Shown here: positions 24,561 through 57,303 of the stretch, in pieces
How the letters are laid out: each line of letters starts with the position of its first letter
Numbering within the stretch: the first letter of the stretch is position 1
Virus record (IMG/VR): IMGVR_UViG_3300042509_002208
Location: 15,111 to 79,110 of that record
From: a virus
Length of the DNA stretch: 64,000 nucleotides
Reading direction: 5' to 3' (one strand)
Translations under genes and position numbers: made by a program
The notes under the pieces: model-generated
The model's database searches: none
Told to the model about the DNA's origin: nothing
What the model saw: the letters and a program-made list of their open reading frames with translations, nothing else

Positions 24561-24749
24561 ATGACTGGTATCGTAGCTTATCTGGTTGCCCACGGCCCTG
24601 AAATCCTTGCTGCATTGATTGCAGTTCATGCTGCAGCAGTTGCTATTGTCAACCTAACTCCCACCCCTAAGGATGACGCTGCAGTTGCTAAACTTTATCG
24701 TGTAATCGAAATCCTGGCAGGCATTGTCACCAAACTGTCAAAGGGCTGA
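24561..24749 (+). CDS. Holin
   Basis: Hydrophobic 62 aa, IVNLTPTPKDD..KLYRVIEILAG family; upstream of the endolysin. Confidence 0.75.
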   Translation: MTGIVAYLVAHGPEILAALIAVHAAAVAIVNLTPTPKDDAAVAKLYRVIEILAGIVTKLSKG

Positions 24750-25027
24750 GTCGATCGGATACCCGTTGGCTTCTTCGTTTCTCTACTAGAAGCCAGCGGG
24801 AAGAAGTTGAACGGTTGATCTCAAAAGTTAGATTCTATCAAACATTAAATAGTAAGGTAACTCTTGAAATTAATCGCGTAAAAGAAGAAATGGCCGAGAT
24901 GGAACAAGCCTCTCAGCCGACAACAGTTAATCATCCGATCGACGACAATTTACAGACTGGTGACTCTAGACTACTTGGCGGTGGGATGAGTATTCATGCC
25001 CCTTGGTCAAAGGAATCGGAAGAATGA
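24746..25027 (+). CDS. Probable -1 frameshift extension of the holin (track ORF 24815..25027)
   Basis: Frame open from slippery A_AAG_GGC at the holin end; only a TTG start without SD otherwise. Confidence 0.55.
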   Translation: MSRSDTRWLLRFSTRSQREEVERLISKVRFYQTLNSKVTLEINRVKEEMAEMEQASQPTTVNHPIDDNLQTGDSRLLGGGMSIHAPWSKESEE

Positions 25028-25047: not shown

Positions 25048-25320
25048 ATGGCACCTCAGGAACCTACCCCATACGGGGGTGACATCTATCATATTTTAGG
25101 TAACCTTGAAGGAAAAATGGACGCCCTGATTGCGCGCACTGCAGAGTACCGCGCAGACTTGCAGACTGCATTTGAAAGAATATCTAAACTGGAGAATAAG
25201 CAAGCTTGGATCATGGGTGCTGCCGTTGTTGTCAGTCTGGTGATGCCGACGATTGTCGGAATTGCATCTCGTAACTTTGATATCAAAATAGACCCGATCA
25301 TAGAGAATCAAGCGAAATAA
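25048..25320 (+). CDS. Coiled-coil plus C-terminal TM lysis accessory protein (XhlA-like)
   Basis: LGNLEGKMDALI..ERISKLENKQAWIMGAAVVVSLV. Confidence 0.6.
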   Translation: MAPQEPTPYGGDIYHILGNLEGKMDALIARTAEYRADLQTAFERISKLENKQAWIMGAAVVVSLVMPTIVGIASRNFDIKIDPIIENQAK

Positions 25321-25345: not shown

Positions 25346-26506
25346 ATGCGATTCATGAGTTATGTAACCTGGGGGCAGGTTTCTCGGTGGGCGAGTGAAG
25401 CCGGCTCAAAGTTCCCCGAGCTAACTGCTGCTCAGTTTGCGCTAGAGAGCAATTGGGGCTCTCAAGTAAGCGGAAAAAATAATCTGTTTGGGCTTAAAGG
25501 TGCTGGCAGCACTGTTAAGACAACGGAGTTTATAAATGGCAAAGAAGTTATTGTCTATGATGACTTCATTGACTTTGATACACCGGAAGAGTCTGTTCAA
25601 TATCTGGTTGATAGATGGTACAAAGATTATGAATATGATGGTTTGACTTATCGCGGTGTAAACAATGCCGCAACAAGAGAGGATGCTGCAAAGATGCTGG
25701 TCTCGGAAAAATATGCCACTGACCCTTTGTATAGTAGCAAACTAATTGACATAATGAATAAGAATAGCCCTCCAGTTGCCACTCCAGTTTCACAACCTAG
25801 GTCGATCAACTTAGAAGATGCAGCGAGATGGTATTCGGCTCAGCCACACCAAATCGAGGCCTGGCGCAATCTGCAGGAGACGTTAACACCAGAGCAGTTA
25901 AGCACCTTTGCGGCTGATTACCGGGCCTCCAGGAAGCCTCTAGGAGCCCCTACGATTGTATCTTTTCCTTTAAAGGTTCCATACTTCTATCAGCGGGACA
26001 GCAAGACAGGACATGGCGAAAGATCCTGTCAGTCTTCTGCGATTGCCATGGTTGTGGAATTCTTGAATCCCGACCTGATTAAAGATGATGATGATTATCT
26101 AAATCTGGTACTCAGATTCGGCGATACCATTTCGCAAGCGGCTCAAGCCAAAGCTCTTAATGCTTTGGGTTTAAAGTATCAATTCAAACAAAACGGAACA
26201 GAAAGTGAGCTTATCCGAATTCTTAATTTAGGGTATCCCGTACCGATTGGAATCTTGCACAAAGGAAATATTCAGAATCCTACTGGTGGAGGCCACTGGA
26301 TTACTCTGATTGGTTATGATGAAAAATACTTCTATGTGCATGATCCGTTTGGTGAACTGGATCTCATCAATGGAGGATATCCGAAGACTGGACCGACTGA
26401 TGGCAAGTCCAAGAAATACACCAGAGCAAATCTGCTTAAGCGTTGGCTAATCCACAGCAAGAGCGATGGCTGGCTTTGGGATCTTAGCGAGAATAAGCGG
26501 CAATGA
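25346..26506 (+). CDS. Endolysin: GH73 glucosaminidase + C39-like peptidase
   Basis: AAQFALESNWG..NNLFGLKG..YATDPLY; VPYFYQRD..SCQSSAIAM..GGGHWITLIGYD..VHDPFG. Confidence 0.9.
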   Translation: MRFMSYVTWGQVSRWASEAGSKFPELTAAQFALESNWGSQVSGKNNLFGLKGAGSTVKTTEFINGKEVIVYDDFIDFDTPEESVQYLVDRWYKDYEYDGLTYRGVNNAATREDAAKMLVSEKYATDPLYSSKLIDIMNKNSPPVATPVSQPRSINLEDAARWYSAQPHQIEAWRNLQETLTPEQLSTFAADYRASRKPLGAPTIVSFPLKVPYFYQRDSKTGHGERSCQSSAIAMVVEFLNPDLIKDDDDYLNLVLRFGDTISQAAQAKALNALGLKYQFKQNGTESELIRILNLGYPVPIGILHKGNIQNPTGGGHWITLIGYDEKYFYVHDPFGELDLINGGYPKTGPTDGKSKKYTRANLLKRWLIHSKSDGWLWDLSENKRQ

Positions 26507-57233: not shown

Positions 57234-57303
57234 GGGCATCTCTAGGAATTGAACCCAGTACTCTAGGCTCCATGGCCTAGCGTGTTCCGTACACCAAGAT
57301 GCA
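57234..57303 (-). tRNA. Atypical tRNA with 8-nt anticodon loop (CCAUGGAG), isotype undetermined
   Basis: GCATCT/AGATGC, GTGT/ACAC, CTAGG/CCTAG, CTGGG-TTCAATT-CCTAG. Confidence 0.7.

Follow-up and report, generated by a model that had tools for sequence, protein, structure and literature searches.

A probable programmed -1 frameshift in the last codons of a small membrane-protein gene from a cyanophage lysis cassette

Two overlapping reading frames near an endolysin gene

We analyzed a 64,000-nucleotide stretch of DNA (the window) that is part of a 79,110-bp phage genome (IMG/VR record IMGVR_UViG_3300042509_002208). An initial annotation, made from the letters alone, had singled out a 62 amino acid ORF that ends TCA AAG GGC TGA, labeled it a holin, and proposed that ribosomes slipping by -1 at its stop codon produce a 155 amino acid extended form alongside the short protein. 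This ORF lies ~600 nt upstream of an endolysin gene. The features of the locus are:

24561..24749, + strand: 0-frame ORF for a small membrane protein, 62 amino acids, ending TCA AAG GGC TGA
24740..24743, + strand: A_AAG slip tetramer, in which AAG (24741-24743) is the candidate shift codon
24740..24746, + strand: A_AAG_GGC, an alternative tandem-slip heptamer in X XXY YYZ register
24743..25027, + strand: -1 frame extension, 94 codons plus stop, giving the predicted 155 amino acid long form
24747..24749, + strand: TGA stop of the short form, within the open -1 frame
24747..24823, + strand: two-tier element, an outer stem around the core hairpin (-35 kcal/mol, z -3.5)
24762..24800, + strand: core 13-bp hairpin, a candidate frameshift stimulator (by folding, z -5.99)
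25048..25320, + strand: 90 amino acid protein, coiled coil at the N-terminus and transmembrane (TM) segment at the C-terminus (phrog_6324; weakly XhlA-like)
25346..26506, + strand: endolysin with glucosaminidase and C39-like peptidase domains (phrog_10051, E 1.5e-108; PF01832, PF13529)

The anatomy described initially was borne out on re-examination. A_AAG_GGC sits in X XXY YYZ register at the end of the ORF, and the -1 frame, open from 24692 to 25027, has TTG 24815 as its first ATG, GTG or TTG. Among the 319 mechanically called ORFs of at least 50 amino acids in the window, 53 have a -1 frame that stays open for at least 80 codons past the stop, and the 24561-24749 ORF is the only one of those 53 to end in an in-register heptamer. 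The combination of a heptamer and a long open -1 frame exceeds chance.

The endolysin is closest to endolysins of Synechococcus and Prochlorococcus siphoviruses and podoviruses. The 90 amino acid gene, which in the window sits between the candidate frameshift gene and the endolysin, matches PF10779 with an E value of 0.018, below the Pfam cut-off. Related loci instead have, ahead of the small TM ORF, a gene for an 82 amino acid protein with TM and coiled-coil parts (phrog_26178). Elsewhere in the window, ARAGORN called four tRNA genes between 53254 and 57302 (Leu-UAA, Met, Leu-CAG and Arg-UCU) and an odd tRNA-like gene at 57234-57302 with a four-base anticodon call; it called no phage tRNA-Lys in the window.

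Frame offset and candidate slip site across relatives

Using the -1 ORF as a tblastn query, we identified homologues in four cyanophage isolates – KBS-S-2A, S-CBS1, S-CBS3 and S-EIVl. In all four, the homologue occupies the -1 frame relative to a small TM ORF of ~46-50 codons, whose 3' end carries A AAA AAG or G GGA AAG followed by a single codon and the stop. Amino acid similarity extends right to the in-register heptamer. In KBS-S-2A, S-CBS1 and S-CBS3, the ORF pair directly precedes the endolysin and shares its strand; in S-EIVl, the neighboring lysin-like genes are on the opposite strand.

The GenBank records misannotate this locus in KBS-S-2A, S-CBS1, S-CBS3 and S-EIVl (L001:2505-2708, L003:2516-2728, L004:2438-2605 and L002:2319-2459, respectively). 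In the KBS-S-2A record, a gap of 204 nt is left without annotation, S-CBS1 gp23 is given a TTG start that lies inside a conserved motif, S-CBS3 gp22 is annotated from an internal ATG, and the small TM ORF is missing entirely from the S-EIVl record. If the reading developed below is right, all four records would need a joined (frameshifted) CDS.

We then assembled a broader set of relatives. Searches with single-protein queries of the four isolates, IMG/VR, JGI metagenomes and GTDB genomes (including metagenome-assembled genomes, MAGs) yielded 115 loci with both parts, which reduced to 81 distinct 180-nt contexts; the two ORFs of each locus were anchored separately by tblastn. The downstream ORF is at -1 relative to the small membrane-protein ORF in 81/81 contexts. 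In each of the 70 contexts scored for it, and in 12 further loci, the 0-frame stop falls within the open -1 frame (81/81 contexts overall); three different stop codons are used across the set. An AAG codon is invariant, one codon before the stop in 78/81 contexts and directly before it in the other three. This stop-to-AAG spacing is strict whichever stop or intervening codon is used, the intervening codon being mostly CGC or CGT.

In 75 of the 81 contexts, the AAG closes a canonical heptamer: A AAA AAG (36), G GGA AAG (34) or C CCA AAG (5). Two further contexts have G GAA AAG, and four – the window, L005, L006 and L039 – have the non-canonical G TCA AAG at the family heptamer position (24737-24743 in the window). 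Of the two features whose conservation in related phages the initial annotation proposed to check, the frame offset is conserved and A_AAG_GGC is not: it is present in the window and L005 only, with AGC in place of GGC in L006 and L039. The family-wide shift codon, judged from these alignments, is AAG and not A_AAG_GGC. In the window clade, TCA occupies the P site at this position and is unable to re-pair, and the A_AAG tetramer alone is conserved there. Slips on A_AAG and on A_AAG_GGC would give the same 155 amino acid protein, because GGC and GGG both encode glycine.

Codon choice around the heptamer follows the slip motif. The codon preceding AAA AAG ends in A in 36/36 contexts even though eight different codons are used, and proline is encoded by CCG in 34/34 G GGA AAG contexts and in both G GAA AAG contexts. 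In L105, whose heptamer has become A AAA AAG, proline is encoded by CCT (one locus seen). This pattern indicates that synonymous positions are fixed for the slip motif.

These observations bear on two explanations in which ribosomes play no part. The first is that a single gene has been broken by a 1-nt indel – as a pseudogene or through sequencing error – and that nothing here is programmed. Runs of A are prone to indel errors, and one-piece homologues and in-frame fusions do exist (P0022, P0115, P0145). Against this, the same -1 offset at the same codon recurs in 81/81 contexts from isolates, viromes, MAGs and different projects, four different heptamers and three stop codons share it, the site in the window has only three A's, and both frames are under selection. 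We give a broken gene very little credence. The second is that RNA polymerase slippage on the A-run, rather than the ribosome, changes the frame, as might be imagined for the 36/81 contexts with at least six consecutive A's. Transcriptional slippage needs runs far longer than three A's (reviewed in PMC5009743), and three is all that the window (AAA), the G GGA AAG sites and the C CCA AAG sites have; such sites make transcriptional slippage implausible. The conserved X XXY YYZ register relative to the 0 frame, moreover, matters to ribosomes only. We therefore regard polymerase slippage, too, as highly improbable.

The tetramer-only site of the window clade has precedent in bacteria. In E. coli, A_AA.G is the most shift-prone tetramer given a strong downstream structure, though tetramers shift at most ~5.6% even with the IS3 pseudoknot, and A_AAG is made slippery by the presence of tRNA-Lys(UUU) without tRNA-Lys(CUU) (PMC4066793). 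In a Prochlorococcaceae MAG that contains a related locus, tRNA-Lys(UUU) is present and tRNA-Lys(CUU) is absent among 33 typed tRNAs, the same tRNA-Lys set as in E. coli; this is one possibly incomplete MAG from a presumed host.

Coding constraint and RNA structure downstream of the stop

The main alternative to a ribosomal frameshift is that the downstream ORF is a separate gene that is translated from its own start – TTG 24815 (giving 70 amino acids), the non-canonical CTG 24746, or re-initiation after the TGA. We compared substitutions over the 69 nt that separate the 0-frame stop from TTG 24815. The window and L005 differ here by 12 bases in 10 codons. Read in the -1 frame, these amount to 10 synonymous and 0 non-synonymous changes, as against 0 and 9 in each of the other frames. 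Over 144 nt, the differences between L006 and L039 are 19 synonymous to 2 non-synonymous when read in the -1 frame; the corresponding figures for the other two frames are 2/19 and 1/20. This substitution pattern indicates that the 69 nt upstream of TTG 24815 is under purifying selection in the -1 frame.

The distribution of start codons in relatives points the same way. The first in-frame ATG, GTG or TTG lies up to 231 nt downstream, at a distance of at least 60 nt in 31/69 contexts, and many relatives have no possible start codon for 140-231 nt. A separate gene can claim that TTG 24815 exists and that gene callers and GenBank annotators have picked such internal starts, that a CTG overlaps the stop wherever TGA is preceded by C, and that a small number of homologues in databases start at an ATG close to the junction (P0125, P0129, P0059). 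However, the 23 codons upstream of the TTG are both constrained in the -1 frame and homologous across clades, relatives with TAG or TAA stops have no CTG, and the IMG/VR relatives found with P0125 all have A AAA AAG and none has the ATG. A separate gene would also explain neither the synonymous fixation of the heptamer nor the invariant -1 offset, and many relatives lack any ATG, GTG or TTG over the distances given above. We consider it unlikely. The initial annotation had named homologues with a conserved start of their own and no slippery site as the finding that would count against a frameshift; the relatives we examined point in the opposite direction. On these sequence comparisons, none of own initiation, re-initiation at a conserved codon, a broken gene or sequencing error can explain the whole set of observations.

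We next examined the RNA structure downstream of the slip site. Folding supported the 13-bp hairpin proposed initially (24762-24774 paired with 24788-24800) at -25 kcal/mol, and 0/200 dinucleotide shuffles fold as well. The proposed extension of this hairpin also held, with an outer stem in which 24747-24757 pairs with 24812-24818 and 24820-24823. At -35 kcal/mol over 87 nt, the whole element is more stable than every other 75-nt window within 1.2 kb on either side (z -3.57). Its spacing is unusual, as the initial annotation had remarked: the core hairpin starts 15 nt after GGC and 18 nt after AAG. The outer stem starts 3 nt after AAG. Slip sites and stimulatory structures are usually separated by 5-9 nt. 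No upstream Shine-Dalgarno-like stimulator is visible in the window.

The core stem is kept in L005 despite a synonymous change in nearly every codon. Across four clade members, the pair 24772/24790 is U-A, G-C or C-G, and the proposed register pairs in 79% of cells, versus 23-44% in slid registers. The covariation score for these four sequences was reached by 15/500 shuffles. These comparisons are suggestive, not conclusive, given four sequences, that the hairpin has been retained through compensatory changes. RNAalifold, run on the four clade members, returned a different, weak consensus that includes the slip site; we discounted this fold as a stimulator, since the slip site would lie under the ribosome.

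Downstream structure is enriched in the family as a whole (mean z -1.15), and 31% of contexts rank in the bottom 5% of local windows. In keeping with the need of a tetramer site for strong structure, the downstream elements of the window and L005 are among the most stable in the 78 contexts tested (z about -3.5). Three of the six non-canonical heptamers are followed by structures among the strongest (the window, L005 and L040); those of L006 and L039 are not. About half of relatives, many with canonical heptamers, have no unusually stable downstream structure.

Predicted products, proposed mechanism and relation to known systems

Hydropathy analysis of the short protein revealed one clear hydrophobic segment at about residues 12-35, followed by an amphipathic helix and a basic tail. 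The holin label of the initial annotation has no family support: the product is a small TM protein with a charged C-terminus, encoded near an endolysin, but neither it nor its relatives match a described Pfam holin family. The short protein matches phrog_9685 (unknown function; E 6e-7) and the TM proteins of relatives match phrog_22542, also of unknown function. The sole holin match, to phrog_1356 at E 0.007, came from one relative, and protein Atlas searches returned 'hypothetical protein' clusters only.

The N-terminal modules of the window and of other relatives differ (24561-24746 in the window versus, for example, L007:2852-2989), while the junction and the extension are homologous. A comparison of TM-protein profiles between the window clade and relatives was not significant (hhalign, E 0.03, probability 1.6%). 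The N-terminal module would either have been swapped at the junction or have diverged beyond detection.

The extension belongs to a small family (112 clusters among 1.84 billion representatives). An AF2 model (pLDDT 75) predicts a short helix, a ~37-residue helix and a small C-terminal strand-helix-strand motif, and the most conserved residues of the extension fall within this C-terminal motif, which is present in 43/43 diverse extensions. Foldseek searches with the model returned cyanophage hypotheticals only in BFVD and nothing in the PDB, and a sequence profile of the extension gave nothing meaningful against the PDB.

Some database proteins join the two parts without a frameshift. P0022 and P0115 are predicted proteins that are identical to the expected trans-frame product as in-frame fusions, and P0045 is an in-frame fusion that keeps the codon preceding the stop. 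These three protein sequences may be natural long-only variants or homopolymer indel errors; an IMG/VR search from P0022 returned only frameshifted relatives. A model of P0022 places the junction in a predicted loop between helices. Such fusions, which suggest that the long form can stand alone, together with the low efficiency predicted by the tetramer-only motif of the window clade, are what favors a further alternative – that the slip is real but is low-level noise, and that only the short (or only the long) protein matters. Noise would not be expected to leave the extension under purifying selection or its C-terminal motif conserved across every diverse extension; the stop, in turn, is retained in 81/81 contexts, which implies that the short form is kept as well. 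We consider noise very unlikely.

More distant homologues are encoded in one piece. Proteins of phrog_3316 (e.g., S-PM2p161) have an N-terminal TM segment or signal and the same C-terminal motif, with E values of 6e-23 for P0145, 4e-4 for the L007 extension and, weakly, 0.036 for the window extension. Because these one-piece homologues carry a membrane segment of their own, the extension is normally attached to a membrane segment or signal at its N-terminus; in the frameshift group, this segment would be supplied by frameshifting. Judged from these homologues, an accessory lysis protein anchored in the membrane is as plausible as an antiholin. The predicted layout of the long form fits an N-terminal TM segment followed by a helical domain, and its charge does not clearly place the C-terminus in the periplasm. 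An antiholin, an anchored endolysin partner and a spanin-like protein are all candidates for its role.

In S-PM2, the phrog_3316-type gene directly follows an annotated lipoprotein precursor gene and is near a 'putative lysin' (L157:3608-4399); by its sequence, the lipoprotein looks RlpA-like to us rather than like an o-spanin. In S-SRM01, the one-piece homologue is ~2 kb from two endolysin genes (L158:894-4414). Such neighborhoods may represent an unrecognized lysis module in cyanomyoviruses. For the window itself, we considered a spanin pair in which the long form is the i-spanin and rejected it, having found no ORF with a lipobox signal in any frame between 22500 and 28000.

Taken together, these analyses make it very probable that a programmed -1 ribosomal frameshift operates at the 3' end of this small membrane-protein gene in the lysis cassette, and conservation strongly supports the production of 62 and 155 amino acid forms that was proposed initially. 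We infer that ribosomes slip here in vivo, and the efficiency and function discussed below are likewise deduced. Under this model, most ribosomes would read TCA AAG GGC and stop at TGA 24747-24749, releasing the 62 amino acid protein. A fraction would slip back one base as tRNA-Lys decodes AAG 24741-24743, re-pairing with AAA 24740-24742 – or, alternatively, would slip in tandem on A_AAG_GGC – presumably with help from the two-tier stem-loop at 24747-24823 (core 24762-24800). Slipped ribosomes would continue in the -1 frame to TGA 25025-25027, producing a 155 amino acid protein predicted to comprise the common N-terminal membrane segment, a linker, the ~37-residue helix and the conserved C-terminal motif. 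One anchor would thereby serve two proteins. The short one would be holin-like or simply an anchor; the long one would be a stalk tethered to the membrane, with a C-terminal motif that acts with the cell-wall lysis machinery.

More tentatively, and along the lines of the fixed ratio and holin/antiholin timing raised in the initial annotation, the frameshift may be a lysis-timing device of a new type, in which a fixed fraction of ribosomes converts a holin-like protein into a tethered partner – an antiholin or an endolysin-linked anchored factor. If this possibility were true, slip frequency, rather than dual starts or a separate gene, would set the time at which the cyanobacterial host bursts. 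The persistence of one junction beside differing N-terminal modules (phrog_9685 versus phrog_22542) would, on this view, suggest that the recoding site itself is the conserved functional unit.

Cyanophage lysis genes are poorly understood, with holins, antiholins and spanins mostly without assignment. The locus described here represents a conserved, endolysin-adjacent, apparently two-product gene in a cyanophage group that includes S-CBS1/3, KBS-S-2A and S-EIVl relatives and many uncultured contigs. Recognizing it corrects annotations – truncated ORFs, starts within conserved motifs and uncalled genes – and gives a testable entry to lysis organization in phages that control marine and freshwater picocyanobacteria. 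Full-text literature searches returned no description of this frameshift, and we found no mention of holins or cyanophages in the accessible part of a recoding review (PMC5009743).

Several known systems resemble parts of this arrangement. Within lysis, lambda S105/S107 and phage 21 S68/S71 are likewise two isoforms of a small membrane protein from one lysis-cassette gene, with a ratio set by translation, as is presumably the case here. Unlike S105/S107, where alternative starts change 2-3 N-terminal residues, frameshifting here would add a 93-residue C-terminal extension; the proteins share no homology, and the holin role of the window protein is putative. In MS2, lysis-gene expression is tied to frameshifting in the coat gene, a precedent listed among the references of the same review (PMC5009743). 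That case differs in that early termination is followed by re-initiation in an RNA phage, and it lacks both a fusion protein and a conserved heptamer. The phrog_3316 proteins of T4-like cyanomyoviruses are homologous in their C-terminal half and have a similar layout and genes near cell-wall hydrolases, but each is a single ORF without a frameshift; their function is likewise without assignment.

The closest mechanistic parallels come from outside lysis. Lambda G/GT (G GGA AAG) has the heptamer found in 34/81 relatives. There, as proposed here, ribosomes slip shortly before a short first ORF ends, so that a single mRNA also yields a version lengthened at its C-terminus, and the site is conserved across phages by position rather than sequence. 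It serves tail assembly, whereas the present locus is in a lysis cassette near an endolysin, and the two are not homologous in sequence. In our case, the stop of the 0 frame also lies exactly one codon past the slip codon, and the window lacks a full heptamer. E. coli dnaX tau/gamma (A AAA AAG) shares its heptamer with 36/81 relatives, as well as AAG decoding by tRNA-Lys(UUU) and a downstream hairpin, but its shift truncates the product whereas the shift here would extend it. The IS3-family orfA/orfB frameshift uses the same minimal A_AAG after a non-slippery codon, with a strong pseudoknot or hairpin downstream and the 0-frame stop close by (PMC4066793); its product is a transposase, in contrast to the membrane-protein isoform predicted here, and the structure here is a two-tier stem-loop. 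The mechanism – bacterial-type -1 programmed ribosomal frameshifting – is thus a known one, and the setting is new: a lysis cassette, with short and long isoforms of a membrane protein. For the recoding field, these loci offer many natural examples of X_XXA_AAG, G_GAA_AAG and tetramer-only sites in non-enterobacterial hosts, with the 0-frame stop at a tightly fixed position.
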